DNA of 64,000 bases from Candidatus Giovannonibacteria bacterium RIFOXYD1_FULL_48_21 (GTDB lineage: Bacteria; Patescibacteriota; Minisyncoccia; JACPKW01; UBA11713), in assembly GCA_001778985.1 (NCBI GenBank), contig MFIU01000001.1, positions 50,111 through 114,110 of the forward strand, read 5' to 3'. Positions 9,064-47,429 of the stretch are shown here, piece by piece (positions within the stretch are counted from its first letter, which is position 1; the number at the start of each line of letters is the position of its first letter). The notes under the pieces were generated by a model. That model did no database searches and was not told the origin of the DNA. It saw only the letters and a program-made list of their open reading frames with translations. The position numbers and the translations under genes are program-made.

Positions 9064-11350
<2,287 letters not shown>

Positions 11351-18583: not shown

Positions 18584-21500
18584 TTGCTTTTAGGATTGGC
18601 AGCAAAAGCTCAAGCCGCTACTTATTATGTAGATAACACTATCACCGATACGAATGTCGGAAGCGCCACTCCCGATTGCACAAATTACAATACAACCACC
18701 TATACTTGTAGCGGCGGCTCATTAAGCGCATACGCCACCATCGCTGACATCAATGCCTTCTCTACGCTTGCGGCAGGCGATTCAGTCCTTTTCCGCAAAG
18801 GCCAGACTTGGAGGGAACAACTAACTGTTCCGGCTTCTGGCACAAGTGGAAATGTGATTACTTTTGGAGCGTATGGGACGAGTGATATACCTATCATCAG
18901 CGGCGCTGACGTGCTGAGCAGTATGGTAACTTCTTCCGCCTACATTGGCGGATACGTTACGCTGGATGGTACCACGGCGAAATATCTCTCAACCCCGGCA
19001 ACGGCAGGGAATGTGCTCTCAGGTACAAGCTTCCGACTGGAGGTGGATGCAGCCCTTGACGACTACACCACGAGTAGCGAGCAGGATTTAATTTCGAAAG
19101 ATGTATGCTGTACTGACACGAACCGGCACTTCGATTTTATCCTTATCAGTAACAACTTTATAGTGTGGCTGTTTGACGGTGCAGGCGGCGCATGGATGTA
19201 TGCATCGGCTGACATCAGTTCTCTACTAACCGACGGCACCCGTTACAAACTTCGGGCGGATATCGTGCCCGACGACAGTTCCGGAGGCTCGTCGGTCACT
19301 TTCTACTATTCGACGGACGGAATCACATATACACAAATTGGTAGTCCGGCGACAGGAACGAACCATGCACTCAATGCCAACAACACAGACATAGTTACTG
19401 TTGGCCGCCGGGGGGATGCAGCAGGGGCGGCGGCGGGGAAGTTTTATCGGGCACGAGCTTGGAGCGATATTACAGGTACGATCCTTGTGTTGGACATGAA
19501 CGTGGATGATGACACGGCCGCGGCGACCTCTTGGACGTCTTCCACCACCGGAGAAACATGGACGGTATCAGGCAGTGCGGCAATAACTGGGCCAACCAAC
19601 ACGACACTTTACTACCAAGCCAAACCAACGCAACCCAATCAGGTCTTCCGTGATGGCGCAAGGATTACGCAAATCGGAGTTCAGGACCAACTGTCTACGG
19701 GATATTGGTGGTGGAATTCGGGCAACAGCCAAGTGTGGATCTACGACAATCCCAGCGAACACATCGTTGAGGCAAGCCAGCGCGACAATGCCATATATGG
19801 TTTCACCAAGTCATATGTGACCGTCCAGAATTTGCAGACAGAAAAGGCCAACAGCCACGGCGTATACTTCCATAACGGCGGTGTGGAGATGGTGATTGCA
19901 GATGTGACCACGGCATATAACTACCATTCGGGAGTACGCTTCAACGGCACTGCCTCTTCCAACCATACCATTTCAAATAGCAACGCCATCTACAACGGAT
20001 ATTCCGGCCTTGACGCTTACGCCACGGGTGGGTGGATGGTTGACAACAATACCGTCCACGACAACTGTCAATCGACAGTATTCAATTACTGTGCGGGAAT
20101 AAAAGTCGAACCTGGAACAGATACCGCCAATTGCACGGTCACCAATAACCTTGTCTACTCTAATGGCATTGGGAATACGGATTGGCGCGGCGCAGGAATC
20201 TGGCTCGATACGGCGGGAACGGGCTGCGTCATCAAGTACAATAAGGTCTATTCCAATAATCTCATGGGCATCTACCTAGATGCCAGCAATGGAGACGTTG
20301 TTGCGTACAATGTCATTTATAGCAACGGACAGACAGGGGCGATTGACGGAGGAGGGATAGCGGTCTACGGGGACTCGCGACCTACTGCCGACAACTTGGT
20401 TTACGGAAACACGGTCCGTGGCAATCGCGGGCACGGAATCATCGTACAAGGGTCAAACCTTCAAGATGGGTGCACCAGCAATATCGTTAAGAACAATATC
20501 TCAGTTGGCGTGGTTTCGGGCACCAACTTCACCGCTAGCGGCGGATGTGAGAATCCTGGCATCAATGGCTCGGGCAATATCTACACATATAACAACTTCG
20601 GCTCCGAGGTGGCCAACTTTATCGAGTGGGGAAGCGGAGTTTACAAATCCACCTACGCCGACTTTGATACCGCTTACGGGTCAGCAACTCATTCCATAAC
20701 AGGAGACCCCATATTTACTAACGCCGCGGGAAACGACTTCACCCTCCAATCCACCTCTCCCGCCATTAATGCCGGAACGAATCTTGGTTCGGATTATGAC
20801 GACGGGCTTTCTCCCGCGTCAACTTGGCCCTCTTCAGTCACAACCATAGACCAAGACCTTCGCGGTTCTGGCTGGGAAATCGGAGCGTATGTTTATCCGG
20901 TTCCCCAAGTCCCCACCATCGGCACTCCTCAAACTTTGTCCGCTTCATCAATCAGATGGAATTTCACCGACAATGCAGGTGATGAAACGGGATTTAGGTT
21001 ATATGGTGGCAGCGACATTTTATCAGCCACCCGCGATCTGTCTTATCTTGATGAAACATCTTTATCATGCAACACCAGCTATTCGGGCCGCTATGTGGAA
21101 GCCTACAACTCCTACGGCTACAGCACGGCTTCTGGCGTAGCTTCTTCCGTGTCCACTCTTTCCTGCCCCGGCGGCGGTGGGATAATGACTGGTCCGGGCG
21201 GGCTCAAAGCTCCGGAGATTCCCGTTCAAACAGCGCTTTCGGCTCCGACGCCCGCCGAAGGCGGGGTCGGAGTCCCGACACCGAAGGTCGTCGGGACCCC
21301 TTTCGTATTTACTTCCAACCTCAAACTCGGCATGAAAGGAAACGATGTCAAACAGCTCCAGATATTCCTGAATCAGCGCCTTGACGTCCCGCTTGCTAAA
21401 TCAGGAGCCGGCTCGCCGGGAAATGAAACGGACTTTTTCGGGCCTTTGACCAAAGCCGCGGTGATTAGATACCAAGAGCAACACGCCCAAGACATCTTGG

Positions 21501-21586
21501 CTCCTTGGAATTTAACCAAAGGAACGGGCTTTGTTGGAAGAACCACCAGAGCGAAGATTAACGAGATGATGGTGAACAAAAGATGA
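18584..21586 (+). CDS. Large secreted multidomain surface protein (1000 aa). It has a parallel beta-helix repeat region, a lectin/LamG-like region, an FN3-like segment and a C-terminal PG-binding-like domain.
   Basis: Beta-helix repeats (NNTVHDN..., TVTNNLVYSNG, VIKYNKVYSNN, VAYNVIYSNG, LVYGNTVRGN). C-terminal GMKGNDVKQLQIFLNQ...FFGPLTKAAVIRYQEQH. The annotated TTG start falls inside the hydrophobic stretch of a putative signal peptide, so the true start is probably upstream. Confidence 0.75.
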   Translation: MLLGLAAKAQAATYYVDNTITDTNVGSATPDCTNYNTTTYTCSGGSLSAYATIADINAFSTLAAGDSVLFRKGQTWREQLTVPASGTSGNVITFGAYGTSDIPIISGADVLSSMVTSSAYIGGYVTLDGTTAKYLSTPATAGNVLSGTSFRLEVDAALDDYTTSSEQDLISKDVCCTDTNRHFDFILISNNFIVWLFDGAGGAWMYASADISSLLTDGTRYKLRADIVPDDSSGGSSVTFYYSTDGITYTQIGSPATGTNHALNANNTDIVTVGRRGDAAGAAAGKFYRARAWSDITGTILVLDMNVDDDTAAATSWTSSTTGETWTVSGSAAITGPTNTTLYYQAKPTQPNQVFRDGARITQIGVQDQLSTGYWWWNSGNSQVWIYDNPSEHIVEASQRDNAIYGFTKSYVTVQNLQTEKANSHGVYFHNGGVEMVIADVTTAYNYHSGVRFNGTASSNHTISNSNAIYNGYSGLDAYATGGWMVDNNTVHDNCQSTVFNYCAGIKVEPGTDTANCTVTNNLVYSNGIGNTDWRGAGIWLDTAGTGCVIKYNKVYSNNLMGIYLDASNGDVVAYNVIYSNGQTGAIDGGGIAVYGDSRPTADNLVYGNTVRGNRGHGIIVQGSNLQDGCTSNIVKNNISVGVVSGTNFTASGGCENPGINGSGNIYTYNNFGSEVANFIEWGSGVYKSTYADFDTAYGSATHSITGDPIFTNAAGNDFTLQSTSPAINAGTNLGSDYDDGLSPASTWPSSVTTIDQDLRGSGWEIGAYVYPVPQVPTIGTPQTLSASSIRWNFTDNAGDETGFRLYGGSDILSATRDLSYLDETSLSCNTSYSGRYVEAYNSYGYSTASGVASSVSTLSCPGGGGIMTGPGGLKAPEIPVQTALSAPTPAEGGVGVPTPKVVGTPFVFTSNLKLGMKGNDVKQLQIFLNQRLDVPLAKSGAGSPGNETDFFGPLTKAAVIRYQEQHAQDILAPWNLTKGTGFVGRTTRAKINEMMVNKR

Positions 21587-21634
21587 ATTTGAGTTCTTGC
21601 CGCATTGGACAATTTCTCCAGTCTTGACACGAGG

Positions 21635-21705
21635 TGGACCTAGGCAGAATTGAACTGCCGTCTCCGCAATGCGAATGCGGCGTATTGCCACTATACTATA
21701 GGCCC
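21635..21705 (-). tRNA. tRNA-Ala (anticodon CGC)
   Basis: Manual fold: acceptor gggccta/taggtcc with the G3:U70 wobble; anticodon stem ccgca/tgcgg with loop ttcgcat; T-arm ggcag-ttcaatt-ctgcc; discriminator A followed by CC. Confidence 0.8.
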
Positions 21706-21980
21706 ATTGGCTTACCAAATTTTATCAGATTTTCCTTCTTTTCGCGGCGCCATCCTTTAATCTGTGTTTCGCGGCGCCTGGCTTCCAATAAAGCCTCAAA
21801 TCTCTCTACATAAACCAATTCTTCAGTTTTATTTCTTCTCGTAAACTCCGCGCCGTCGCCACTTTTATGTCTCTCTGTCCGCCTTTCAATATCGCCAGTA
21901 TATCCTACATAGAGATGGCCCTTTGCGCCGCGAAGTATATAAACAAAATACATAATGGACCGGAGAAAGGTCAAAGACAT
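21696..21980 (-). CDS. GIY-YIG nuclease domain protein
   Basis: FVYILRGAKGHLYVGYTGDIERRTERH: GIY...YIG with a catalytic Arg. Its last 10 nt overlap the 5' end of tRNA-Ala. Confidence 0.75.
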   Translation of the reverse strand: MSLTFLRSIMYFVYILRGAKGHLYVGYTGDIERRTERHKSGDGAEFTRRNKTEELVYVERFEALLEARRRETQIKGWRREKKENLIKFGKPMGL

Positions 21981-22040
21981 TGAGCGAGCGGAGCTTCGAC
22001 AAGCTCAGCTCATTTCTCCTCGCTCCGCGAGTCGAAATGT

Positions 22041-22085
22041 CGGGGTGCGGAGAATTGAACTCCGTCTTCGCGCACCTTCACCCCG
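22041..22085 (-). other. Degenerate tRNA-like minihelix (pseudo-tRNA fragment). It has an acceptor stem plus a T-arm, and lacks D and anticodon arms.
   Basis: Minus-sense reading: cggggtg + aaggtgcgcgaaga + cggag-ttcaatt-ctccg + caccccg + A. The T-loop is identical to that of tRNA-Ala. Confidence 0.35.
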
Positions 22086-22099
22086 TTAGATATTTCAGG

Positions 22100-22171
22100 T
22101 CGGGCCGGAGGGAGTCGAACCCTCTATCTCACGGACCCGAACCGTGCATGTTGCCGATACACTACGGCCCG
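22100..22171 (-). tRNA. tRNA-Pro (anticodon CGG)
   Basis: Manual fold: acceptor cgggccg/cggcccg; D-arm gtgt...acat; anticodon stem cacgg/ccgtg with loop ttcgggt; T-arm gaggg-ttcgact-ccctc; discriminator A. Confidence 0.8.
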
Positions 22172-22181
22172 ATATATCTAA

Positions 22182-22220
22182 CGGGGCGCGGCGCGCGTAC
22201 TGCCGGTATACTACACCCCG
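22182..22220 (-). other. Degenerate tRNA-like fragment: an acceptor 5' strand and a D-arm-like hairpin joined directly to an acceptor 3' strand
   Basis: Minus-sense reading: cggggtg-ta-gtataccggcagtac-gcgcgccg-cgccccg. Resembles the 5' part of the neighbouring tRNA-Pro. Confidence 0.3.
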
Positions 22221-22256
22221 CCTTCGCCAAGGCTTCGGCGGGCAAGCCCGCTAAAC

Positions 22257-23735
22257 CTACGCCACCCAGAATTTTTCTTTTAATTCTCGGTCGCGGCTGG
22301 CTTCGACTTCTTCCTTTTTCTCTTTGCCGGATTCGGCCAATTTTTTAAGTTCTGCTTCCGAAAGCTCTCCCAGCTCTTTAATTCTACCAATTAAATATTC
22401 TTTAGTATTTTTTTTCGGCTCTTGTAAAACCTCTTCCAAAAGGGCGGAGAGAGCCATGCCGACTTTCGGCCCCGGTCGAATCCTCAAAATTTTCATCACG
22501 TCATCGCCTTTGACCTTAAGCATACCGACCGAAATTGGGTCTTTCTGCACCTTCTCCACCATAAACTTGAAGTGGCGGAGTTTGTAGGGGACTGCCTTGG
22601 GCACGCCGGAGCCGATGCGGTCGGCCTCACGCACCCGAATTAAATCCTCAATCAAATCCGGCCCGACGTTTCTTAAAACTCTTCGGACAGAAGACTCGGT
22701 CACTTCGCCCACATTGTAGTAAAAAAGATGCCAGCGAACGAGGCGGATGACTTTTTCTGAAAAATCTTTGGGAAAGCGCAACCGCTCCAAAATTTTAGCG
22801 GACATCTTGGCGCCCAAAACGTCGTGGCCGTAGAAAGTGGAAAATTTGCCTTCGCCGCGCTTGGCGCGAGGTTTGGCGATATCGTGCAAAAGCGAGGCCA
22901 ATTTAACCTCAAAAGAATAGCCTTTTTTTACCGTATATTCCAGGGCTTTCAAATTATGCTCCCAGACCGTGAAAACATGGTGGAGGTTTTGCCCCACGCC
23001 GACCCCCTCCAAAAGTTCCGGCAAAAATTCTTTAAGAAGACCGGATTCCCGGAGGAATTCAATTCCTTCCGCCGCCCCTTCAGACATAATCAATTTCACA
23101 AACTCATCCCTGATTCTTTCTTTTGAAATAAATTTTAAAAGTCCGGCGTTTTTCTTAACCGCTTCGCGGGTGCGCTCTTCGATGGTAAAATCCAGTTCGG
23201 CGGAAAACCTGACGGCGCGCAGAAGCCGCAGGGCGTCTTCCTGAAAACGTTCGGCTGGCTCGCCGACCGCGCGAATGATTTTGTTTTTCAAATCCTCTTT
23301 GCCGCCAACGAGGTCGATGATTTGGAAGTCCGACTTCCTAGGGAAGTCGGACTTCCCTAGGGCCATCGCCAGAGCATTTATGGTAAAATCCCTGCGGCCG
23401 ATGTCGTCCGCGAGGCTTTGCGCAAACTCAATTTTATCCGGATGGCGCTTGTCTGAATATTTGGCTTCGAGGCGAAAGGGAGTAACTTCAACCACTTTCA
23501 AAGTTTCATCGTCCGAGCCGGTTTTAACGCCCACGGTTCCAAAATCATTTTCATAAAAACTATCTGGAAAAATTTTCTGGATTTCTTCGGGCTTTGCGTT
23601 CGTCGTTATATCCCAATCCTTCGGCTTTTCTCCGCGCAAAAAATCCCGCACGCATCCGCCCACGAGAAAGGCCTCAAAATTATTTTCCCGAAGTTTTTTT
23701 ATAACTTCAACGATTTCTTTTGGAATTTTTGTCAT
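22257..23735 (-). CDS. cca: CCA-adding enzyme / poly(A) polymerase family with a C-terminal HD domain
   Basis: GGCVRDFLRG..DWDITT nucleotidyltransferase head; HD motif in LLHDIAKP. Start moved to MTKIPKEI (23735) because the ORF-track start (23777) runs into tRNA-Arg. Confidence 0.85.
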   Translation of the reverse strand: MTKIPKEIVEVIKKLRENNFEAFLVGGCVRDFLRGEKPKDWDITTNAKPEEIQKIFPDSFYENDFGTVGVKTGSDDETLKVVEVTPFRLEAKYSDKRHPDKIEFAQSLADDIGRRDFTINALAMALGKSDFPRKSDFQIIDLVGGKEDLKNKIIRAVGEPAERFQEDALRLLRAVRFSAELDFTIEERTREAVKKNAGLLKFISKERIRDEFVKLIMSEGAAEGIEFLRESGLLKEFLPELLEGVGVGQNLHHVFTVWEHNLKALEYTVKKGYSFEVKLASLLHDIAKPRAKRGEGKFSTFYGHDVLGAKMSAKILERLRFPKDFSEKVIRLVRWHLFYYNVGEVTESSVRRVLRNVGPDLIEDLIRVREADRIGSGVPKAVPYKLRHFKFMVEKVQKDPISVGMLKVKGDDVMKILRIRPGPKVGMALSALLEEVLQEPKKNTKEYLIGRIKELGELSEAELKKLAESGKEKKEEVEASRDRELKEKFWVA

Positions 23736-23745
23736 ATCAAAGGTG

Positions 23746-23819
23746 CGCCCTCGCCCCGATTCGAACGGGGAATACATGGTCCGAAGCCATGCGTGATATC
23801 CGTTTCACCACGAGGGCAA
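23746..23819 (-). tRNA. tRNA-Arg (anticodon TCG)
   Basis: Manual fold: acceptor gccctcg/cgagggc; anticodon stem catgg/ccatg with loop cttcgga; T-arm ccccg-ttcgaat-cgggg; discriminator G. Confidence 0.8.
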
Positions 23820-23829
23820 CGAGGGAATT

Positions 23830-24186
23830 TTATAATTGGCTTGCGAAATTTTCAATGGCGAGCGAAATAGCATTGGCTCCCACCACCAGCAAGGCTCCAA
23901 TCACCGCCCAGAAAAAAGTGGTTTTGGCTTTTTTTAACTGCTCCTCGTCGCCCCGGGCCGAGACGAATAAAAATCCGGCGTAAATCATAAATACCACCAC
24001 TAGGGGCAATCCAATCTTAGCCGCAATATCAGCAATCTTTGCCATCAGGTCAGCGAAGGTAGAAGACTGAATTGGGTTACAAATTTCTACCGCCGGATTA
24101 CAGCCGATAATCGCAAGTGTAAAAACAGGAAGGAGGAAAATCAAAGAGGGGGTTAGAAACCGCAACAAATGAAAAATTGATTTCAT
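23830..24186 (-). CDS. Small secreted two-TM protein, possibly a TrbC/VirB2-like pilin
   Basis: 118 aa: signal peptide, then two hydrophobic helices separated by a short charged loop (SARGDEEQLKKAKT). Topology only; no sequence signature. Confidence 0.45.
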   Translation of the reverse strand: MKSIFHLLRFLTPSLIFLLPVFTLAIIGCNPAVEICNPIQSSTFADLMAKIADIAAKIGLPLVVVFMIYAGFLFVSARGDEEQLKKAKTTFFWAVIGALLVVGANAISLAIENFASQL

Positions 24187-24285
24187 GAGCTTGCTTAAAT
24201 TTTATCATTTTTCCGGAAACATAAAAGGGGCAGATGCGTTAAGCAGCCGCCCCTCCGTTGCAAAATCCAAGGTGCAAATAAGGTA

Positions 24286-25200
24286 CTACAGGGCTTCGAA
24301 AATGAACACTCCCTCCGCCTTAATCTTAATCTTGAAGATACTTGGGTGATAAACGGAGGGACGAGTGCCATGCTGACGATAATACCCCTCAACATCTACT
24401 AATTCGATGTTGGATTTCCCCCACCTTCTCTCTCTTTCGAGATAAAAGCTCGGAAAATCACAGGCCAGGCACTCCACCCGAGCCCTACCTTCCAGCAGCC
24501 TGATACCTATTGGCTGTAGAAGATATTCTTTTTCTTCCCCCGGGCTCATGAACACTATTACTCCTCGGGGAAGAGTAGGAAGGACGAGTTCACCACTCGG
24601 TGCCCCTGGTCCAGGTTTTCCGCTGCCATCACCCCACGCCTTAGCCAGTTCATCCTTGAGCTTTCTCTGGGCATAAGCGTCGGCTATCCAATCCCCATCT
24701 TCTACAAAACGGGTAACGGCTCGGGGAACGGCAGGAAACAAAGAGCTAAGTAGGGCATAAATGAATGTTGCGACAAAAAGTCTAATCACCCATTTTTTGC
24801 CGGTCTCGCCCTTTGTCCAGCCAGCTTGCCAGGTGAAGAAAAGAGCCGCGATGGAAAGATATAACAAGAACGCAATCTGGTCGCTGCCCTTTATAGCAAG
24901 TCCGGGATAGCGCCCGCTCAAAATTCCCAAGAACTCTATCAAGACAAGGCTAGCCAAGACCCCAAAAATGAGAGTCTTAACCGCCCTGTAAAGCTTCACA
25001 CCCCTGCCGCCCAGCTTTCTGAAGAACCCCTCGGCCTGCTCCTGGTTCAATAGATAGAAAAGGCCGAAGAAAAGCAGAAAAAACCAAATACTCGTTGAGC
25101 CGCCGAGGAAGAAGATCGCGATAAAGGTTAGAACTACGGACATCGTGAAGAGCCAGAAAATATCAGAAAACTCTAACACAAGTTCTTTTTTCTCGTTCAT
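24286..25200 (-). CDS. Hypothetical membrane protein (304 aa) with a C-terminal soluble domain
   Basis: About four N-terminal TM helices. Part of a three-gene operon with overlapping stops and starts (24286-26663). Confidence 0.6.
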   Translation of the reverse strand: MNEKKELVLEFSDIFWLFTMSVVLTFIAIFFLGGSTSIWFFLLFFGLFYLLNQEQAEGFFRKLGGRGVKLYRAVKTLIFGVLASLVLIEFLGILSGRYPGLAIKGSDQIAFLLYLSIAALFFTWQAGWTKGETGKKWVIRLFVATFIYALLSSLFPAVPRAVTRFVEDGDWIADAYAQRKLKDELAKAWGDGSGKPGPGAPSGELVLPTLPRGVIVFMSPGEEKEYLLQPIGIRLLEGRARVECLACDFPSFYLERERRWGKSNIELVDVEGYYRQHGTRPSVYHPSIFKIKIKAEGVFIFEAL

Positions 25201-25958
25201 CTTGGACCTCCTTTTCCTAAGTGGGTACCGATGCCGGTTACAAGATCAATGAAGTCGACAAAGGTATCCAGAATCTGAACCCAGTTCCTTCTCGCGCCTG
25301 TTGGAACCGCTACTGGCGTGGCTTGCCGCCGTTCATCCCTCTCTCTCCGTTTTTGCTCAATCCACTCGCCGAATTCCTCTCTTCTGGCCGCCACTCCATA
25401 GAACAAGAGGGTCGGCAAGTAGAGTAAAACAAGAATAAACCAATGACTCCAGGAACGTAGCCCATAGAAGTTGCGTCTTTTTTCCGCCCTTTCCAGAGCT
25501 TCCTTCCTGACAGGTTTATTCCACCCGATAACGTTTCCTGCGCCGTCAAGCTGCCAATGTTTCAACAGCTTATCAGAAAATGTCGCAAGAACATTCTGAG
25601 AGCGCAGGGTTATCTCAGATGATTGAAGAGGTCGGACTTTATTGATAAATCCTTCCTCAACGCCGCGGACCAGGGGTTGCCCCCAGCCTACAAAGAGACA
25701 AAAGACAAAGAATGTGAAGGTGAGACCGGCCAGCCAGCACCAGCGCCTTTCGTTGGTTTCAAAGAAGCGCCGGTAGTCCGGATGGGCTGATATAGTCCGA
25801 GAAAAGGAGATAAGAACGGTTGAAAGCCACGCGAGATACGCGATGATCATCAACCAGGCAAGATTCTCTCCAGCTGGGTTTTTGGAAAACCACCAGAAGA
25901 GAATTAACACCGCCGCCACCGCCAGTAAAACGCTACAAACAAACATTCGTCTCGACAT
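25197..25958 (-). CDS. Hypothetical membrane protein (253 aa)
   Basis: Four predicted TM helices and a basic, charged C-terminus. Start/stop overlap with neighbouring genes. Confidence 0.6.
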   Translation of the reverse strand: MSRRMFVCSVLLAVAAVLILFWWFSKNPAGENLAWLMIIAYLAWLSTVLISFSRTISAHPDYRRFFETNERRWCWLAGLTFTFFVFCLFVGWGQPLVRGVEEGFINKVRPLQSSEITLRSQNVLATFSDKLLKHWQLDGAGNVIGWNKPVRKEALERAEKRRNFYGLRSWSHWFILVLLYLPTLLFYGVAARREEFGEWIEQKRRERDERRQATPVAVPTGARRNWVQILDTFVDFIDLVTGIGTHLGKGGPR

Positions 25959-25967
25959 AATGCCTCC

Positions 25968-26663
25968 TTACTGTCCGAAATAGATAGCACCTATGATAAG
26001 AAGCAGAAATATCAAAGCTCCAGATAACCAGAGCAATTTCTGCTCCAACGACATCGCGGGTATGGGCGTCAGGGGTTCTTTGATAACAAGCTCCTGCTCG
26101 CAATCGAGTTTCTCGAGCTTCACTTTCACTTTCGCCCGCCGAAAACCTTTCGGTAAACAGACCTCAAAGACATCCCTTCCTGATATATCCGCTCTCCGGG
26201 GGGATTCCCTGAAATCTCCATCCCATACAGCGGTATAAACATAATCCGCCTCAACACCGCACCCTTTCTCGTCCCGCACCTCTACCCCAACTAAAACCTC
26301 CCATTCCCAGCTACTTTTTTCGCTTATCGCATCTCGACGGAGCTCCATCTTTGGTTTTGGATAAGGCAAGCTTACCTCCAAAATATGGTTCCGGATCGGA
26401 GTGCCGTCCACATCCACTGAGATAATCGGCGGCGGGACAAGCGACACATCCTCAAGAATGGTAGAGACGCTACCATTTCCCAGAACTTCGGCGGTTTTGG
26501 AGAGATTCTTGTTTATAAAGAACCTAACCGCCCGTCCCGGACGCGCGAGTCGCGAACCGAAATAAGGAATAAGAATAAGACCGAGATTGGCAGTGGTCAA
26601 AGTCACGGGACTTACTTTTTGGTCCTTCAAAACTATCCTGAACCCACTTTCGTTGTCTGCCAT
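25968..26663 (-). CDS. Hypothetical tail-anchored protein (231 aa): soluble N-terminal domain with a single C-terminal TM helix
   Basis: C-terminal LLWLSGALIFLLLIIGAIYFGQ. First gene of the minus-strand operon. Confidence 0.6.
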   Translation of the reverse strand: MADNESGFRIVLKDQKVSPVTLTTANLGLILIPYFGSRLARPGRAVRFFINKNLSKTAEVLGNGSVSTILEDVSLVPPPIISVDVDGTPIRNHILEVSLPYPKPKMELRRDAISEKSSWEWEVLVGVEVRDEKGCGVEADYVYTAVWDGDFRESPRRADISGRDVFEVCLPKGFRRAKVKVKLEKLDCEQELVIKEPLTPIPAMSLEQKLLWLSGALIFLLLIIGAIYFGQ

Positions 26664-26749
26664 AAACTCACCTTCCTTTCTTTCTGGTTTGTTTTGTGCC
26701 TTTATTTAGCCTTTAAATTGTCAATGATTTGTTCAAAATTATAGCTGAT

Positions 26750-26778
26750 TTGACATAAAAAGTCAAGGATGATATATT
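26750..26778 (+). promoter_or_regulatory. Sigma70-like promoter TTGACA-N17-TATATT driving the 26785 gene, nearly leaderless, with an overlapping inverted repeat TTGAC-N7-GTCAA
   Basis: -35 at 26750-26755 and -10 at 26773-26778 read directly. ATG at 26785. Palindrome ttgacataaaaagtcaa. Confidence 0.5.
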
Positions 26779-26784
26779 TATAGA

Positions 26785-27054
26785 ATGTTGCCCGCATCTT
26801 TAAGGCCTCTTTTTTGGTCTTACGAGTTTGAAAAGCTTAACTTGGAAAAGGATGGACCTCTTATTATCCGACAAGTCATAAATTACGGGAGGTGGGAAGA
26901 TTGGAAGTGGCTTTTAAAAAATTACGGCAGGGGAAAAGTCAAAAAAACCATTCAAGCCACGCCGGCTTCCGGTTTCCGGCCCCAAGCCCTGAAACTCATT
27001 ACCCTTCTCCTAGGAGCGGCGGAACCAAAATATGCATCCAGAAGCACTCGCTGA
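26785..27054 (+). CDS. Small protein encoded upstream of, and overlapping, the nucleotidyltransferase gene. Candidate antitoxin-like partner.
   Basis: 89 aa. 23-nt overlap with the downstream gene. No recognised fold. Confidence 0.45.
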   Translation: MLPASLRPLFWSYEFEKLNLEKDGPLIIRQVINYGRWEDWKWLLKNYGRGKVKKTIQATPASGFRPQALKLITLLLGAAEPKYASRSTR

Positions 27055-27649
27055 AAGCGCGCGAATTCTCCTGCCTCGCCTGGGCGGAATAGATAATTTT
27101 TACCTGGCTGGAGGGAGTGCGTTAGCGCTTCAAATCGGGCACCGCCTTTCAGAGGATTTAGATTTTTTTTCTGACAGCAAAATTAAAAAAACCCTGCTCC
27201 CGAAAATTGAGAAAATTCTTGAAGGAGGGACGGCGAGAACGGGGGTGAACAACTCCGGGGAACTTACTTTGGTGTCAGGTTCAATAAAAATTACGTTTCT
27301 CCATTATCCTTTCCCCCTTCTTTTCCCATTACTAAATTACAAAGGAATCCGTTTGGCAAACATCAGAGAAATTGCCTGCATGAAGGCCTACACGATTGGA
27401 AGGCGCGGGAGCTTCAAGGACTACGTGGACATTTATTTCGTACTCAAAGAAGGGCTTGAAAAGATTGAGAACATCATTGCCGATGCCCGGAGAAAATATA
27501 CCGAAGCGTTTGACGCCAGGCTTTTTTTGGAACAACTTCTTTATCTCGAAGATATCCAGGATATGGAAATAAAGTTTCTAAAAAGCCGCATTGGGAGAGA
27601 AGAGATAAAAAATTTTTTCCAGAAAAAGATTAAAGCGATAAAGCTCTAG
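27032..27649 (+). CDS. Possible nucleotidyltransferase of the AbiEii/DUF1814-like toxin family
   Basis: Glycine-rich NTase-like head LAGGSALALQIGHRLSEDLDFF. 205 aa. Paired with an overlapping small upstream ORF. Confidence 0.55.
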   Translation: MHPEALAESARILLPRLGGIDNFYLAGGSALALQIGHRLSEDLDFFSDSKIKKTLLPKIEKILEGGTARTGVNNSGELTLVSGSIKITFLHYPFPLLFPLLNYKGIRLANIREIACMKAYTIGRRGSFKDYVDIYFVLKEGLEKIENIIADARRKYTEAFDARLFLEQLLYLEDIQDMEIKFLKSRIGREEIKNFFQKKIKAIKL

Positions 27650-27651
27650 AG

Positions 27652-28524
27652 TCAACCCTTCCGTCTTCTCGCATGAAACGCTCTATGGACCTCGCGCAAG
27701 GAGCGGTCAGTTACATGCGTATAAATCTGGGTGGTGGTGATGCTGGAATGCCCCAAAAGCGCCTGCACCGAACGCAAATCCGCTCCGTTTATAAGTAAAT
27801 CGGTCGCGAACATGTGGCGCAGGACATGCGGTGTCACTTTTTTCGAAATCCCGGCCTTGGCCGCGTAATATTTAAGGAGCCGCTCCACGGAACGGGGAGT
27901 GATGGGAAAAAGTTTTTCGGAAATATCCTCGCGTTTCTCCAAATATTCCTTGAGCGCTTTTTTGGCTCGGGACGACAAGAAAACCACCCTCACTTTCTCG
28001 CCCTTGCCCCTGACGGAAAATTCTTCTTTGTTCAAATCTACCGAATCTCTATCCAGTCCCGCGAGTTCCGAAACCCGGAGCCCGGTCGAAAATAAAAGCT
28101 CCACAATCGCGCGGTCCCGTAAAATTTTCAAATCGCCTCCCTCCGGAGCTTTCAGCAATCTTTCCAGCTCCTCGACTGAAATCAAATCCAAATCGCGCTC
28201 CGGCGCTTTGGCGAGTAAAATTCTCTCGGCCGACATACTCTCGACTCCGCGCCAAGCCAAGTACTTCAAAAAATTTCGAAGCGCGATTAAATGGTAGTTC
28301 TGGGTTCGCTTCTTAAAATTCTCGCGGTTCAAAAAAAGGCGAAAGCGCCTGACCAGCTCGTCGTTAATCGCGGCCGGCGAGGAAATGTTGGCAAAGCCGA
28401 AGAATTTTTTAAGGTAGCGGTCGTAATTTTCCACGGTTTTGAGCGAACGCCCCCGTTCGATTTCAAGGTATTCCAAAAATTGCCGGTGAAGCTCCTTTAA
28501 CTGCATAATTATATTTTGCGACAT
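27652..28524 (-). CDS. xerC: Tyrosine site-specific recombinase, XerC/XerD family
   Basis: C-terminal catalytic region HVLRHMFATDLLINGADLRSVQALLGHSSITTTQIYTHV, with R..HxxR..Y. Confidence 0.85.
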   Translation of the reverse strand: MSQNIIMQLKELHRQFLEYLEIERGRSLKTVENYDRYLKKFFGFANISSPAAINDELVRRFRLFLNRENFKKRTQNYHLIALRNFLKYLAWRGVESMSAERILLAKAPERDLDLISVEELERLLKAPEGGDLKILRDRAIVELLFSTGLRVSELAGLDRDSVDLNKEEFSVRGKGEKVRVVFLSSRAKKALKEYLEKREDISEKLFPITPRSVERLLKYYAAKAGISKKVTPHVLRHMFATDLLINGADLRSVQALLGHSSITTTQIYTHVTDRSLREVHRAFHARRRKG

Positions 28525-39695: not shown

Positions 39696-40634
39696 GTGAA
39701 GTATTTACCGAGCCCAAGAATTTTAGGCTTTTTTGTCATAATTTCAGCCCTCGCCGGGGTGGGGTGGTTTTGGTATTTTTCTCCTTCTTCGAACAAAAGC
39801 GAGGTCTATGAAAACGGCGCCTTGACAGCCGGGTCCGTAAATAAAATCACGGCAGACGCTGACGGCGACGGGCTGCAAGACTGGGAAGAGGTTTTATGGA
39901 AAACCGACCCCAAAAACCCGGATTCTGACGGAGACGGCATATTTGATGGCGACGAAACAAGGCCAGCAAACAATCTAAAAGCCGCCATTTCAGAAAAACT
40001 TCCCGAAGAGCCGAACCTGACCGAAGCCTTCTCTGGAGCTTTCGCGCGCTCAATCGGCCCGAGAATTCTGGAAGAAGGCGGGCTGTCCGGCATATCCGCC
40101 GCCGATCTGCAGGGGATCGCAGGCTATCTCCCGAGTTCGGATTCGCTGCTGCCTGAACCTGAAAAAATAACGAGCGACGACATAATTATCTCTGAGAAAA
40201 ATGACAATACTGCGGTTAAAAAATATTTTTCGGATCTCTTTTCCGTCTACGAAAAAACTTTCTACACGCTCACAGAAGACGATTTCTCTATACTGGAGCG
40301 CGCCTTTCGGGAAGAAAATTTCAGCGAACTCGCCAAGATTGACGAAATCATAAATGTTTTTGAAAAAAGTTTTCAGGGAGTGAAAAAACTTCCCGTGCCC
40401 GGGGGTTGGGAAAATTTCACGATAAAAGAACTTGGCTATATTCTGCGCACCAAACAGATTTTGGAAAAAATCAGGGGCGCGGGCCAAGATCCTCTCTCCG
40501 CGCTGATTTTGCTTCCGAAGCGAGTAGAACTTATGAACGAGGTTAATAAATTTCACAAAGAAACCGGAGAACTTCTTAAAGATAAGGGAATAACTTTCAG
40601 CGAGAGCGAAGGGGCTTATAAAATTTTCCATTAA
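39696..40634 (+). CDS. Membrane-anchored secreted protein with Ca-binding-like Asp-rich repeats. First gene of the T4SS-like cluster.
   Basis: N-terminal TM helix, then DADGDGLQDWEE...DPKNPDSDGDGIFDGDE (thrombospondin-type-3-like DxDxDG). TATAAT at 39683 and GGGTGA upstream. Confidence 0.55.
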   Translation: MKYLPSPRILGFFVIISALAGVGWFWYFSPSSNKSEVYENGALTAGSVNKITADADGDGLQDWEEVLWKTDPKNPDSDGDGIFDGDETRPANNLKAAISEKLPEEPNLTEAFSGAFARSIGPRILEEGGLSGISAADLQGIAGYLPSSDSLLPEPEKITSDDIIISEKNDNTAVKKYFSDLFSVYEKTFYTLTEDDFSILERAFREENFSELAKIDEIINVFEKSFQGVKKLPVPGGWENFTIKELGYILRTKQILEKIRGAGQDPLSALILLPKRVELMNEVNKFHKETGELLKDKGITFSESEGAYKIFH

Positions 40635-40636
40635 GC

Positions 40637-41914
40637 ATGGGCGGTTTTTCAGAAAAATACAAAAAATTTTTATCGATCTCTGCCATAGTTTTGATTTTAT
40701 CATCCGCCTTCTTTCCGTTTTCCAAGGCGCAGGCCATCGTTCCTGTTTTTGACGCTCCGGCAAATGTACTTCTAGGAACTATAAGCGGCTTTACGGGTTC
40801 GACGGCCGGTTTCACGGGAAGCTTAGTAGCCAAAGAATTCGGCTTCGATTCAATTGCTTGGCTCGTGGGAAAAGCTTTACTCCGAACCATCACCACGCAA
40901 ATTGTCAACTGGATTAAAACCGGTGACACCAGGGGGCCTTTGTTCGTGGAAAATTTTCTGGAGCATTTCTCGCGCGAAATGGACAACGCCGTGGGACTTT
41001 TCTTGGAGCAATATTTCGGCAGGAACTCCCAGCTTTTGGGGCTTTTATGCAGTCCGTTTCGCCTGACCCTGCCGCAACTTCTGGGCGTGCACCGCAGGTC
41101 CCAAGACTTCACCCAGCAGGCGCGCTGTAAGCTCTCGGACATCGTCAGAAACGTCGAGAATTTTAACGTTAACTTGTATTTCAACGACTTTTCGCACGGC
41201 GGCTGGGACGCCTGGTTCGCGATGCTGGAGCCGGAACACAATATGTTCGGGCAATATCTGACGGGCGTTTCTCGGCTTGAACGAGAGCGCGCCAGCGCAT
41301 TTTTCGCAGGCCAAACCGAAGCTCAGACTACCGGCGGCGGGCTTTTGTCCTGGCAGGAATGCGAAACCATCGCGATTCCGAGCCCAGACGGCATTGTCGC
41401 GGACGAAAGATTAAGACAAAACTGCAAAATTATGACGCCCGGCAAACTGGTTGAAGATTCTCTGGCGAACGCTTTTGGCTCGGGCATTAAACAATTGGAG
41501 CTTGCAGACGAGCTGAACGAAATCCTGGTCGCCTTCTTCCAGCTCTTGATAGACCAAATTCTTTCGCAAGGATTTTCAAGAACAAACCCAGGCACCATTA
41601 CTCCGCCTCCGGCGCCTCTTTTTGACTATTATCTTTTGACAAACGGGAGTATCAACGTAACTCGCGGAGCTTCGGGTTCTAATACGATTACCCGCGTGCT
41701 TATTTCCGGCACGCCGGCCGTCGTAAGTGTCGCGGCCTCGGGGCTTCCGGCTGGGACTACGGCCTCTTTCACCAACAACCCCTGCACAGTGCCCTGCGCC
41801 AGCGCCCTTACCATCAGCACGGCGTCAAGCACGCCTGACGGAAGTTTTTCTATTACAGTCACTGGCTCTCCCTTAAATAGGACCGCCACTTTCAGTCTAA
41901 TTGTTTCGCCATGA
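40637..41914 (+). CDS. Hypothetical secreted protein (425 aa)
   Basis: Signal peptide, with a C-terminal Ig-like Thr/Ser-rich region. Confidence 0.55.
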   Translation: MGGFSEKYKKFLSISAIVLILSSAFFPFSKAQAIVPVFDAPANVLLGTISGFTGSTAGFTGSLVAKEFGFDSIAWLVGKALLRTITTQIVNWIKTGDTRGPLFVENFLEHFSREMDNAVGLFLEQYFGRNSQLLGLLCSPFRLTLPQLLGVHRRSQDFTQQARCKLSDIVRNVENFNVNLYFNDFSHGGWDAWFAMLEPEHNMFGQYLTGVSRLERERASAFFAGQTEAQTTGGGLLSWQECETIAIPSPDGIVADERLRQNCKIMTPGKLVEDSLANAFGSGIKQLELADELNEILVAFFQLLIDQILSQGFSRTNPGTITPPPAPLFDYYLLTNGSINVTRGASGSNTITRVLISGTPAVVSVAASGLPAGTTASFTNNPCTVPCASALTISTASSTPDGSFSITVTGSPLNRTATFSLIVSP

Positions 41915-43875
41915 GAAACGTCTTTTTCCGAAAATTTATAGTAGCGCTTCTCATCCTGGGATTTTTTGTTATGTTTTTCGCGCCGCGCGCGAGTTTCGCG
42001 CAACCAAGCATAACATCAAACCTTTCTGGGTGTTCTTGGGGGGTTTTTTCTGTGCTTAATGACATAAACTGCCTCGCCTTTCCGGTAGCATATATACTCG
42101 ATTTTGTATTCACTTTTGTCGGTTGGTTTTTTGTGGGCATTTTAGGAAATATTTTTAGCTACACTTTAGGTTTGACGATTAACAACGGGTTATATCAAAA
42201 CATTGAACCGATAGCGACCGGCTGGGCTTTCACGCGCGATGTTGTAAACATATTTTTCATATTCGCGCTTCTTTTCATAGCCATCGCGACCATTCTTGGA
42301 ATCGAATCTTACGGAGTCAAAGCTTTACTGCCGCGGCTCATAATAATCGCCTTACTGGTAAACTTTAGTCTATTGGCGACTCAAGCAATCATTTTTGTTA
42401 CCAACGCCCTAGCATACGAACTTTACAGCGTTGTTACGGTAACGGGCGTCTCCTCCAAAATTCTTTCAAACTACGCTCAGCCTGGATTCAATCGTGATAT
42501 CGCGGGAGCTATCATGCAGGGCATCGGGCAACAGAGATTATTTAACGTCAATCCCTCGGGGCTTCAGCCGGGCTCTAGCGCTCCCCCAACCAGCGCCGCC
42601 CAGGTTAATATTGCCGTGATTGTGACCCTTGGGGCCTCTATATTCATAATGGCATTTGCCGGCTTTATATTTTTGGCGGGGTCATTTTTCTTCATTGTCC
42701 GAATGGCAACTTTATGGCTCTTGATGGTGCTCGCTCCTTTTGGCTTTGTCTTCTTAATTCTTCCCGCAACCAAAGGTTATGCCCAGAAGTGGTGGACCAC
42801 GCTTCAATCCCAAGCTTTATTCGCGCCCGCCTTCATGTTCTTTATAATAATTACCGTAAAAATGTCCAACGCGGATCTATTCGGAATAGTAAGAAGAATA
42901 AATAGTAATCCCAACATGGGCGCGACCGATCTCATTTTTCTTTTGATTATTCAAAGCACTGTTATTTTTCTTCTGCTGGGCGGCTCACTTATCATCGCCA
43001 AAACTCTCGGCATCTATGGCGCCGGAGCGGCGATAGGCATGGCCGCCGGCGCCGGCAAGGCGTTCAGGGGGTATGTGGGGAAGGGGGCGCTTAGGATGGG
43101 AGCGCTACCTGCCCGCGGACTAAACAAATTAGCTACGGCACCCGGAAGAATTCCATATGCCGGCCCCGTTTTCCGTGCATTACTTAAACCGCTAACTGCC
43201 GCTACGGGCGCGGCCGTAAGAGTAACGGATAAAGAAAAAACCGAACGCCAAGAAAGCTGGAAAAAACTTTCTCCTATTGCGCTTGCCGAAACATATCGTG
43301 GCGCAGTAAATCCGTTAACGCGAAAGGAAATACTGAAAGCTGCGGGAGAGTCTGGAAAATTAGATAAATTTAGTGAGGGTGAACTGCAAACAGCTTACAG
43401 TCAATTTAAAGATAAGCCGGCGGATGCAAGGGCCTACAATAATGTCGTAAAAGCAAGGCCGGACTTAATCGAAAAAGATAGTTCTCTTTCGCCCGCCGAT
43501 AAACGAACACGAATGACCGACGCATTGAGCAGGATGTCAGAAAAAGATATCGAAGAAAAACTGGATAAGAAAACTTTTGATCCAGCCAATGCCTTGACAC
43601 AAGAGTTGATGGTACTGACGTGGGGAGAAAGAGAAATGACCGCAGCCATCAGAAAACACGGAGAAGCAGCCAGAAATGCTGTAAACCAATCACTCGCTAC
43701 AATGGGGCCACCAGATGTTCAGTTCCGCAACTTATACGACAACAATAAAAGTTTCATCAAAGGTCTTTTCAGAAATCCAGCCCTTGCGCTTCAATTCGGC
43801 GTACTTAGAACTAACATGGAGAGAGCGGCAGCGCGGGCATATCCTGATTGGGAACATAGATTAGGAATTACATAA
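41911..43875 (+). CDS. Polytopic membrane protein, candidate VirB6/TrbL-like channel component
   Basis: 654 aa. Signal peptide, then at least six TM helices, then a hydrophilic C-terminal extension. Architecture only. Confidence 0.5.
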   Translation: MRNVFFRKFIVALLILGFFVMFFAPRASFAQPSITSNLSGCSWGVFSVLNDINCLAFPVAYILDFVFTFVGWFFVGILGNIFSYTLGLTINNGLYQNIEPIATGWAFTRDVVNIFFIFALLFIAIATILGIESYGVKALLPRLIIIALLVNFSLLATQAIIFVTNALAYELYSVVTVTGVSSKILSNYAQPGFNRDIAGAIMQGIGQQRLFNVNPSGLQPGSSAPPTSAAQVNIAVIVTLGASIFIMAFAGFIFLAGSFFFIVRMATLWLLMVLAPFGFVFLILPATKGYAQKWWTTLQSQALFAPAFMFFIIITVKMSNADLFGIVRRINSNPNMGATDLIFLLIIQSTVIFLLLGGSLIIAKTLGIYGAGAAIGMAAGAGKAFRGYVGKGALRMGALPARGLNKLATAPGRIPYAGPVFRALLKPLTAATGAAVRVTDKEKTERQESWKKLSPIALAETYRGAVNPLTRKEILKAAGESGKLDKFSEGELQTAYSQFKDKPADARAYNNVVKARPDLIEKDSSLSPADKRTRMTDALSRMSEKDIEEKLDKKTFDPANALTQELMVLTWGEREMTAAIRKHGEAARNAVNQSLATMGPPDVQFRNLYDNNKSFIKGLFRNPALALQFGVLRTNMERAAARAYPDWEHRLGIT

Positions 43876-43879
43876 AGAA

Positions 43880-44548
43880 ATGATGACGGATGTAGAAAAA
43901 AATTTTTACCAACTCCTAGAAAAACTTCCGAAGGATTTGCAAAATGCTATCTCGGGCGTGGATACTGCTGACGCTATCGAAAGCATCGCGAAGAAATACT
44001 CTCTACTTATCGACAAAATGGGTATTTTGGCCGAGGAGACTGGCTTAGTGATGCTGGGCATTACCCATCCAAAAGATTTTATCTCAAATCTTTCGCAGAA
44101 GCTCGGCGTGGACCGCGAAACCGCGAGAAAAATCGCCGAAGATATAAATCAGCAGATTTTTCAGAAAGTGAGAGAAAGTTTGCGGAAAATACACGGAATC
44201 AAAGAAGAAGCTCCGAGCATTTCGTCTGTTTCTCCTGTTTCGCCGGTATCCAAACCTCCTCCTCCCTTGCCCGCCGAAGCCTTGGCGAAGGCGGGGCCGT
44301 CAGTTTCCCAACCGCCAAAAAAGGAAATTCCCAAAGAAGAAATACGTCCACTGGAAATCCGCCCGATGAAAAGTTTCGCCGAAGAAACTAAAAAAGAAAT
44401 CAAACTTGCCGAGCCCGTGAAACCGGTGCCGCAGCTTGAAAAAATAAAAGTTATGCCTGTAGAAAAGGCGGCGCCGCCTCCAAATCTGCCGATTGCCGAC
44501 GAAAAAATAAAGAAAAAGTTCGACCCGTATAGAGAACCAATGAAGTAA
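43880..44548 (+). CDS. Hypothetical protein with a Pro-rich C-terminal half
   Basis: 222 aa (SPVSPVSKPPPPLPAEALAKAGPSVSQPPKKE). Confidence 0.5.
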   Translation: MMTDVEKNFYQLLEKLPKDLQNAISGVDTADAIESIAKKYSLLIDKMGILAEETGLVMLGITHPKDFISNLSQKLGVDRETARKIAEDINQQIFQKVRESLRKIHGIKEEAPSISSVSPVSPVSKPPPPLPAEALAKAGPSVSQPPKKEIPKEEIRPLEIRPMKSFAEETKKEIKLAEPVKPVPQLEKIKVMPVEKAAPPPNLPIADEKIKKKFDPYREPMK

Positions 44549-44550
44549 CC

Positions 44551-45610: not shown

Positions 45611-45615
45611 AAAAG

Positions 45616-47427: not shown

Positions 47428-47429
47428 AT

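Follow-up and report, generated by a model that had tools for sequence, protein, structure and literature searches.

A stretch of 64,000 nucleotides (nt) from the ordinary chromosome of a Candidatus Giovannonibacteria genome (Paceibacteria, candidate phyla radiation, CPR; contig MFIU01000001.1, positions 50,111 to 114,110), hereafter the window, was analysed for a row of genes that runs from a Xer-type tyrosine recombinase through three family-less membrane-protein genes on the minus strand (named D, C and B, together the trio) and a VirB2-like pilin gene to tRNA-Arg(TCG) and the gene of the CCA-adding enzyme. The reading favoured here, and held to be probable, is that the region is built in three layers: core genes, a clade-restricted four-gene envelope locus that recombines, and a strain-specific insertion of a DUF6922-AbiEii gene pair. 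The Xer, tRNA-Arg(TCG) and CCA genes form the first layer and keep their neighbourhood across the class. The second layer, the D-C-B-pilin locus, would be maintained as divergent versions that strains exchange by homologous recombination across the Xer and CCA genes on either side. The third is an insertion of 884 bp that separates the promoter of the trio from the stop codon of Xer. The trio locus would then be a new case of a replacement-type variable envelope locus, unusually small and in a CPR bacterium. The Xer recombinase and the pilin family are already known, and the inserted pair represents an AbiEii-family module with a non-canonical partner; the trio is a tiny, uncharacterised membrane-protein family.

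The original prediction, made from the letters of the window, had read the row from tRNA-Arg to the recombinase as a possible accessory island. Every feature that it had listed exists where it had placed it, apart from a detail of the gene overlaps, and its island reading is supported in part only. It had placed the tRNA correctly, ARAGORN and Rfam agreeing on it, and had noted a pilin-like gene on the minus strand, which scored above the PF18895 cut-off. The trio, described there as a tail-anchored protein, a four-transmembrane protein and a membrane protein with a soluble C-domain, was found as open reading frames (ORFs) at the coordinates it had given, with no family match. The interpretation of the trio and pilin as a locus that varies through homologous replacement of divergent alleles, and a type IV secretion system (T4SS) cluster found in the same window, go beyond that reading.

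Gene order and divergence of the trio alleles

The recombinase was used as the anchor, and its best 80 relatives were taken from contigs representing one genome per species (the Paceibacteria species loci). The trio-bearing relatives that were compared were L005, L091, L095-97, L098 and L094, of which L098 and L094 are partial contigs. L091, a single contig assembled from a public read set, is the sister genome of the window. The locus was carried on contigs of up to 706 kb and came from many groundwater samples.

The order pnp-NYN-rpsO, Xer, D, C, B, pilin, tRNA-Arg, CCA was kept in L005, L091 and L095, and L098 and L094 fitted it as far as their contigs reach; the same gene order was present in at least five divergent Giovannonibacteria lineages. 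Neither the trio nor this pilin was found in the 80 other Paceibacteria loci by tblastn and profile search. Given the fixed order in all trio carriers and the absence from the 80 other loci, the trio and pilin are clade-specific but vertically stable, in an interval that is variable in general.

The amino-acid identity between the window and L091 was 94% for PNPase, 99% for NYN, 93% for S15, 90% for Xer and 89% for the CCA enzyme; the corresponding values were 76% for the pilin, 65% for D, 45% for C and 39% for B. Sliding nucleotide identity between the two was 90-95% over 28-36 kb, fell through the 3' part of xer, was lowest at 50-60% between ~26.0 and 24.2 kb, and recovered within the pilin gene. 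Synonymous divergence (dS) was 0.28-0.43 in seven flanking genes, 0.70 and 0.73 in the border genes Xer and CCA, 1.25 in D, 2.2 in C and 1.6 in the pilin, and was saturated in B. The ratio of nonsynonymous to synonymous divergence (dN/dS) was ~0.19 for D and C. With dN/dS this low and dS raised, the genes are therefore under purifying selection, and their alleles are far older than the genomic background.

The C-domain of B was 63% identical between the window and the distant L005, against 31% between the window and its sister L091. Likewise, D was 74% identical between L005 and L091 and 65% between the window and L091. On these comparisons, the relationships of the alleles contradict those of the genomes, and the alleles are mosaic between lineages. 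Between lineages, identity was 34-45% for B, 36-45% for C and 16-20% for D against L095, in which the N-domain is replaced, while the flanks remained at 71-99%. B itself was identical across 23 contigs from many samples. Old alleles that are mosaic between lineages point to swapping by homologous recombination, as in a replacement-type flexible genomic island. A diversity-generating retroelement was considered and rejected: no reverse-transcriptase domain was present in the genes of the region, B did not vary across the 23 contigs, and no template/variable repeat pair was found, there being no repeat pair longer than 29 nt at 63-76% identity in 21.5-29.5 kb.

Replacement-type flexible genomic islands are exchanged by homologous recombination, typically encode exposed structures and have borders with raised, mostly synonymous divergence (Lopez-Perez, Martin-Cuadrado and Rodriguez-Valera 2014, PMC4033161). 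The trio locus resembles them in its fixed position, in its divergent or non-homologous content of like architecture, in the raised dS of its two border core genes relative to genes further out, and in encoding membrane or envelope proteins, the surface exposure of which is here only predicted. It differs in size, comprising three genes in ~2.4 kb where such islands typically extend over tens of kb of glycosyltransferase, O-antigen or S-layer genes, and in having been found in an ultra-small CPR episymbiont, in one close genome pair.

Anatomy and transcription of the trio

The sequences of D, C and B gave nothing above threshold against Pfam, NCBIfam, PADLOC and PHROGs. A word-indexed search of 5.8e9 proteins returned 2-5 clusters for each of the three; for D, five 90%-identity clusters were present among the 5.8 billion proteins, all at least 63% identical. 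An exhaustive profile search of 1.84 billion proteins found only eight 50%-identity representatives of B, all of the same family, and there is therefore no remote homologue to lend it a function. A metagenome scan with the D profile recovered two short contigs only. Nothing significant was found for the three families in PDB sequence-profile searches, and Foldseek of B against PDB gave no match below E=1e-3. AlphaFold2 models built from shallow alignments had a pLDDT of 39.7 for D, which was unusable, and of 53.1 overall for B, with 60-80 in the C-domain. From weak cupin matches, the C-terminal domain of B is possibly cupin-like.

In L095 and L098, the first gene of the trio keeps only the membrane-proximal Ig-like domain and the anchor, and the N-terminal domain is a different one. 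This positional equivalent of D matched the MG4 domain (31.5 bits, cut-off 24.7), and D aligned to it over the last ~100 residues and the transmembrane helix only (hhalign E=9e-4, probability 23%). The membrane-proximal part of D thus resembles an Ig/macroglobulin-like domain.

Conservation within the trio was uneven. The most conserved segments by mean pairwise identity were the AGWTxGxTGKKW loop of B (64%) and the FYGLxSWSHW motif of C (71%), and the transmembrane cores and the basic loops predicted to be cytoplasmic were 55-71% conserved. The most variable were the linker and C-domain of B (11-20%) and the middle of the C loop (22%). Lys+Arg counts placed loops 2-3 and 4-5 of B inside, so that its C-domain is predicted outside; in the same way, loop 2-3 and the C-terminal tail of C were placed inside, and its long TM3-TM4 loop (between the third and fourth transmembrane helices) is predicted outside.

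The overlapping stops and starts that had been proposed for the whole trio were present for C and B, which share 4 nt (ATGA) with AGGAGG upstream. Between D and C there is a gap of 9 nt, and the Shine-Dalgarno sequence of C (GGAGG) abuts the D stop codon. A promoter before the trio was kept in L005, L091 and L095. Directly after B, a GC-rich hairpin followed by a T-run was found at the same place in five lineages with differing stem sequences; a generic terminator scan had overlooked it because of its 13-nt loop. The trio thus has the appearance of an operon, with a near-consensus sigma-70 promoter in front and a conserved hairpin terminator at its end. The conserved hairpin and T-run after B, together with a TGnTAnAAT element before the pilin gene, indicate that the pilin is probably driven by its own promoter, as a separate transcription unit.

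Proposed role of the locus and points against it

From the predicted topology, the trio would be an exposed envelope complex. D, C and B would form one cytoplasmic-membrane complex, in which the C-terminal domain of B and the TM3-TM4 loop of C would face outward as exchangeable surfaces. Phage, or the host cell with which the episymbiont is in contact, may exert frequency-dependent selection on the outward parts, and the complex might work with the neighbouring pilin and the T4SS 15-25 kb away. CPR bacteria (Patescibacteria) are thought to be host-attached, and T4SS and pilins belong to the small number of systems with a demonstrated essential part in that lifestyle (PMC12102498). The trio locus is a concrete candidate for a specificity or phage-evasion determinant because it is compact, lies beside a conserved T4SS pilin, encodes membrane proteins only, and has alleles that appear to recombine between otherwise nearly identical genomes. 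It would also be a convenient marker of strain-level diversity in groundwater Giovannonibacteria.

A further extension is offered tentatively, and we consider it rather unlikely. D-C-B may be an undescribed three-component membrane machine of a Giovannonibacteria subclade which, with the pilin and the origin-proximal T4SS, would act as a contact-specificity determinant, its outward domains serving as allelic cassettes (a 'serotype' locus).

Several points weigh against the recombining envelope locus. The case for recombination comes mainly from one close genome pair, the window and L091, the latter a single assembled contig. The topology of the trio is drawn from hydropathy and positive-inside counts only and is weak to that extent. 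The N-terminus of D is predicted inside, yet its N-domain is the part replaced wholesale between lineages, which does not fit an outward exchangeable surface. The trio has no homologue of known function and no usable three-dimensional model, as the pLDDT values of 39.7 and 53.1 indicate. The link to the pilin is weak: its mature part is highly conserved rather than diversified, and the pilin appears to be a transcription unit separate from the trio. The trio and pilin were seen at one chromosomal site only, and their adjacency may be inherited rather than functional. Finally, the 5-bp TTGAC repeat at the edges of the inserted pair (see below) is short and could reflect chance or microhomology, so the junction is not diagnostic.

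Pilin and type IV secretion genes

The protein encoded by the pilin gene has a signal peptide and a Cys-x7-Cys pair, and a charged loop connects its two hydrophobic helices. Its score against TrbC (23.0 bits) was under the cut-off of 27.9, as was its score against the cut-off of the NCBIfam Mbov_0395 pilin family. The protein was 81% identical over 99 amino acids (aa) in L005, and its gene immediately followed B in every trio lineage. A monoderm-type T4SS cluster was located on the plus strand at ~39.7-50.6 kb (39696-50600), 15-25 kb from the locus and just upstream of yidC, dnaA and dnaN.

In Patescibacteria, VirB2-like pilins and a T4SS near dnaA have been described, the latter for Paceibacteria; in Patescibacteria the T4SS parts are often dispersed, with pilins away from virB4 in ~40% of assemblies (PMC12102498). 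The window agrees with this description in its pilin, which matched PF18895 above the gathering score and has the expected signal peptide, hydrophobic helices and charged loop, and in its monoderm-type T4SS near dnaA. It departs from it in that the pilin is a single gene with no array, ~21 kb from virB4, and in that its mature part is ~80% identical between lineages where the published arrays average 25% (PMC12102498).

A functional tie between the trio, pilin and T4SS is plausible from their adjacency at a single inherited site, though we would not expect it to hold. The corresponding alternative to an exchanged envelope locus, that the trio is an accessory module of the VirB2-like pilin and T4SS, either a platform for pilin insertion and extraction or a contact and adhesion determinant, is likewise possible but unlikely. 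Every lineage with B has the pilin immediately downstream; this co-occurrence is, however, at one inherited site and is not independent. The window does encode the PrgI/VirB3-like protein, the TraC-like part, VirB4 and a second pilin-like gene, and the dispersal of T4SS parts common in Patescibacteria (PMC12102498) would accommodate the distance. B also matched a membrane protein of pLS20 conjugation, faintly and below threshold (E=0.012, 14.5 bits, cut-off 150), but the trio had no above-threshold similarity to T4SS components in CONJScan, Pfam or NCBIfam. The conserved terminator and separate promoter-like element between B and the pilin gene also speak against a single module, as does the trio being found in 0 of the 80 other Paceibacteria loci.

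The DUF6922-AbiEii pair

The pair is carried by a strain-specific insertion and runs opposite to Xer and the trio. In L005, L091 and L095, a consensus promoter (TTGACT/TTGACA-N17-TATAAT) and the D start came within 105-142 nt after the Xer stop codon, and the pair was missing from every trio-carrying relative retrieved, as far as the contigs reach. The insertion is bracketed by two minus-strand TTGAC pentamers, one at 27655-27651 that holds the Xer stop (TGA) and one at 26766-26762 within the -35 box of the trio promoter. This TTGAC junction looks like a 5-bp duplication or a microhomology junction. The accessory character that had been predicted for the whole block thus applies to the DUF6922-AbiEii pair, the remainder being conserved; the pair is the sole true insertion or deletion of the block.

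The small ORF that had been noted as overlapping a nucleotidyltransferase gene by 23 nt was confirmed and identified as DUF6922, and the profile search that had been suggested for the nucleotidyltransferase confirmed its AbiEii assignment. The protein covers positions 11-220 of the 238 in the PF08843 profile and matched eight PADLOC AbiEii models (best E=5e-9). The nucleotidyltransferase signature hG[GS]...D.D was present in the translation as LAGGSALALQIGHRLSEDLDFF (GGSAL...EDLDF), with KDYVDIYF further on. No AbiEi winged-helix (COG5340-type) antitoxin match was obtained for the upstream gene in Pfam, NCBIfam or PADLOC at E<=0.1, the only match being DUF6922, and no mention of DUF6922 was found in the literature searched.

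The divergent promoter of the pair, predicted together with a palindrome, was also verified. The palindrome TTGACATAAAAAGTCAA consists of both -35 boxes, and the -35 box of the pair's promoter sits within the spacer of the trio promoter. Simultaneous occupancy of the two promoters is therefore probably excluded, which suggests that they compete.

Characterised AbiEii/MenT toxins add nucleotides to tRNA 3' ends, and diverse antitoxins restrain them (PMC7450476, PMC10435456, PMC11375011). From family membership, the pair may be a toxin-antitoxin-like module with a DUF1814 nucleotidyltransferase as the toxin; characterised members of the family (MenT) block translation through tRNA 3' end extension. 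It shares with AbiE/MenAT type IV toxin-antitoxin systems the PF08843 and PADLOC AbiEii matches, the GG[ST]..L...D.D signature, the toxin gene as second in a two-gene unit with overlapping frames, and a promoter with an inverted repeat. It differs from them in its partner, an 89-aa DUF6922 protein instead of an AbiEi/COG5340 winged-helix antitoxin or a known MenA, and in its putative toxin, which is short at 205 aa against a 238-position profile. Since the canonical AbiEi partner is absent, the pair is filed as an AbiEii-family toxin-antitoxin-like module only and not as an AbiE system. With DUF6922, the DUF1814 toxin family gains a candidate antitoxin partner of a non-canonical kind.

An overlapping DUF6922-AbiEii pair was also present in L029, a distant member of the Paceibacteria, with 29% and 41% identity to the pair of the window. 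In that locus, the pair and a second partial AbiEii match were found at 4020-5004 and 9136-9495, the pair lying ~3 kb from Xer and ~1.1 kb from tRNA-Arg(TCG). An apparent disruption of DUF6922 in L101 was a gene-calling artefact, as the DNA was identical. Scans of plasmids (blastn, tblastn) and viral contigs for the pair, B and C returned no relatives.

With an AbiEii-family gene adjoining in the window strain, the trio could also be regarded as a membrane protective system (anti-phage, superinfection or entry exclusion) that has arms-race alleles and forms a mini defence locus with AbiEii. We regard this as improbable. Divergent alleles replaced by recombination at a fixed hot spot would be expected of such a system, and the variable domain of D, if cytoplasmic, would suit a sensor. 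Conjugative exclusion proteins are small, allele-specific membrane proteins. However, D, C and B had no PADLOC or PHROGs match and no recognisable effector or enzymatic domain, and the locus is fixed in all subclade lineages rather than patchy. The AbiEii pair was absent from all other trio carriers, so its adjacency is incidental.

That the trio consists of decaying or barely constrained lineage-specific ORFs that diverged under relaxed selection is hardly credible: its tiny distribution, lack of known domains and low amino-acid identity between close genomes would agree with this, but dN/dS is ~0.19 for D and C, intact frames, Shine-Dalgarno sequences, the gene overlap, the promoter and the terminator are conserved in five or six lineages, the motifs AGWTxGxTGKKW and FYGLxSWSHW are strongly conserved, and the raised dS would be left unexplained.

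Xer, tRNA-Arg and the CCA gene

The recombinase matched PF00589 (Phage_integrase) with 141 bits and the SAM-like N-terminal domain PF02899 with 58.6 bits, and its catalytic residues R...K...HxxR...H...Y were readable in the translation (LRVSEL, GKGEKVR, HVLRH, LGHSS, IYTH). In the 80 Paceibacteria loci, it divergently adjoined rpsO-NYN-pnp wherever the contig extends that far, and identity in relatives was 79-92%. By this synteny, the recombinase is the chromosomal Xer, as the original prediction had itself suspected. Against the NCBIfam model NF040815 (XerA_Arch, an equivalog for archaeal XerA and integron-integrase-like proteins), it scored 248.2 bits and passed the cut-off of 220; against the XerC and XerD models it scored ~245 bits, under their cut-offs of 335 and 330. 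The XerA cut-off being passed while those of XerC and XerD were clearly missed, Paceibacteria Xer may represent a single-recombinase Xer system. Like archaeal XerA, XerS/difSL and XerH/difH, it would be the product of one tyrosine-recombinase xer gene, with the XerA cut-off passed and the chromosomal position kept. It differs in that the conserved motif upstream of xer has no second inverted arm and is not a demonstrable dif.

This 14-nt motif, ATGTCGCACAATAT(T), was located no more than 400 nt upstream of xer or at its annotated start, in either orientation, in 46 of 83 Paceibacteria species, among loci L013-L095. Within 1.26 Mb of fetched loci, there were 52 exact copies of GTCGCACAA, 48 of them at the position upstream of xer. 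The copy in the window, at 28510-28523 on the minus strand, has 2 mismatches. A conserved second arm of ATGTCGCACAATAT was sought across the 83 loci and none was found. The motif may serve as an operator, as a half-site for Xer or as a promoter-proximal element. A dif site beside xer was set aside as an explanation of the variable locus, the motif being one-armed and on the opposite side of xer from the variable region.

The CCA enzyme has PolyA_pol, PolyA_pol_RNAbd and HD domains. Its longest ORF reaches 23777 and would overlap tRNA-Arg. The gene was 0.6-7 kb downstream of Xer in most of the 80 Paceibacteria loci. The position of the tRNA relative to it was inspected in the first 30 of these, and tRNA-Arg(TCG) adjoined the CCA gene in most of them. 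The tRNA is a core gene and a fixed neighbour of the CCA gene, and not an attachment site.

Across the Paceibacteria (loci L011-L040), the interval between Xer and CCA was 0.6-7 kb long and of unrelated content, including M14 peptidases, a peptidoglycan-binding protein, DoxX and small transmembrane proteins. The CCA gene was oriented toward Xer in most loci, and the tRNA-Arg/CCA pair was inverted in the Giovannonibacteria subclade. The interval is a general variable spot beside a conserved core.

It is very improbable that the stretch between tRNA-Arg and the recombinase, both included, represents a defence island or integrated mobile element that was inserted at the tRNA, is moved by the recombinase and carries the trio and AbiEii as cargo. 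The order of tRNA, unrecognised genes, AbiEii and tyrosine recombinase is superficially like that of tRNA-targeting islands, the content of the interval between Xer and CCA/tRNA-Arg does vary among Paceibacteria, and L029 likewise has a DUF6922-AbiEii pair no further than 3.5 kb from Xer and tRNA-Arg. The recombinase is, however, the orthologous and syntenic Xer of 80 species, above the XerA equivalog cut-off, and five divergent lineages share one order of the trio, pilin, tRNA and Xer. The original prediction had noted no direct repeat of the tRNA 3' end, and in fact no repeat of tRNA-Arg of at least 12 nt was found on either strand anywhere in the 64 kb; nor were there long direct or inverted repeats in 21.5-29.5 kb, or relatives in viral contigs or plasmids. 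The compositional skew it had proposed to look for was not seen. GC content was 0.46-0.49 in the block against 0.47-0.52 in the flanks, and GC, third-position GC (GC3) and codon usage were within ~2 standard deviations (sd) of the genes of the window. The trio deviated from the window mean by no more than 0.3 sd in GC3 and 1.8 sd in codon-usage score; the DUF6922-AbiEii pair was slightly AT-richer (GC3 -1.2 sd).

An element bounded by the tRNA and the recombinase is thus contradicted by the synteny of Xer, trio, pilin and tRNA-Arg in at least five divergent relatives. Of the two findings that the original prediction had named as telling against it, conserved synteny and a nucleotidyltransferase lacking AbiEii homology, the first was observed, while the nucleotidyltransferase does have AbiEii homology. 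In CPR genomes, a row made up of a tRNA, unrecognised genes, an Abi gene and a tyrosine recombinase does not suffice for an island call, because Xer and tRNA-Arg/CCA are fixed neighbours there.

Features of the window

Table 1. Positions of the genes and signals discussed in the text, numbered from the first nucleotide of the window
Feature	Position	Strand	Remarks
CCA-adding enzyme gene	22257-23735	-	likely ATG start at 23735; 492 aa, as in public annotation
tRNA-Arg(TCG)	23745-23817 (ARAGORN); 23746-23817 (Rfam)	-	Rfam 57.9 bits
VirB2-like T4SS pilin	23830-24186	-	118 aa; PF18895 T4SS_pilin 38.1 bits, cut-off 26.6
Extended -10-like element TGATAAAAT	24199-24207	-	upstream of pilin start; TGnTAnAAT-like elements at equivalent place in five lineages
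Putative intrinsic terminator	24223-24256	-	GC-rich hairpin and T-run directly after B
Gene B	24286-25200	-	304 aa; five transmembrane helices, AGWTxGxTGKKW loop, amphipathic helix, variable Gly/Pro-rich linker, ~100-aa variable C-terminal beta domain
Gene C	25197-25958	-	253 aa; four transmembrane helices, ~80-aa variable TM3-TM4 loop, FYGLxSWSHW motif, very basic C-terminal tail
Gene D	25968-26663	-	231 aa; beta-rich, without signal peptide, single C-terminal transmembrane helix
Trio promoter TTGACT-N17-TATAAT	26766-26738	-	11/12 consensus matches; interlocks with the plus-strand promoter
DUF6922/AbiEii promoter TTGACA-N17-TATATT	26750-26778	+	11/12 consensus matches
Strain-specific insertion	26767-27650		884 bp; carries the DUF6922-AbiEii pair
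DUF6922 protein, putative antitoxin-like partner	26785-27054	+	89 aa; PF21956, 57.6 bits
AbiEii/DUF1814-family nucleotidyltransferase	27032-27649	+	205 aa; PF08843, E=1e-14, 55.5 bits, cut-off 22.5
Xer-type tyrosine recombinase	27652-28524	-	likely true start ATG at 28506 (MQLKEL), not 28524
Large family-less ORFs in T4SS cluster	40637-41914; 41911-43875; 47738-48874	+
PrgI/VirB3-like gene	44551-44970	+
TraC-like N-terminal part (split VirB4)	44954-45610	+
VirB4-like ATPase	45616-47427	+	TraG P-loop E=7e-24
Second pilin-like gene	48858-49436	+	weak PF18895
yidC	51011-51751	-
dnaA	52481-53848
dnaN	53982-55079

Other observations

An Rfam scan of the window returned tRNAs only. A second variable spot was observed beyond the CCA gene, where the alignment of window positions ~21000-22300 to L091 14480-15239 was rich in gaps and ~50% identical. 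L091 has a 238-aa gene there, and the window carries tRNA-Pro, a GIY-YIG gene, tRNA-Ala and a beta-helix protein of 1000 aa (18584-21586). Within the CCA-enzyme gene, at 23324-23356, two overlapping perfect 15-nt palindromes (GGAAGTCCGACTTCC, 3 nt, GGAAGTCGGACTTCC) encode the repeated peptide KSDFPRKSDF.

The GC minimum of the window was at 53001-55000 (0.34 at 53-54 kb and 0.395 at 54-55 kb, with a GC skew of -0.235) and spans the 3' end of dnaA, the dnaA-dnaN spacer and dnaN; this low-GC stretch may mark the oriC region. A PilB/GspE-type ATPase was encoded on the minus strand at 62758-63972 (T2SSE, E=1e-115); the origin region thus has genes of a type IV pilus or competence system nearby as well.

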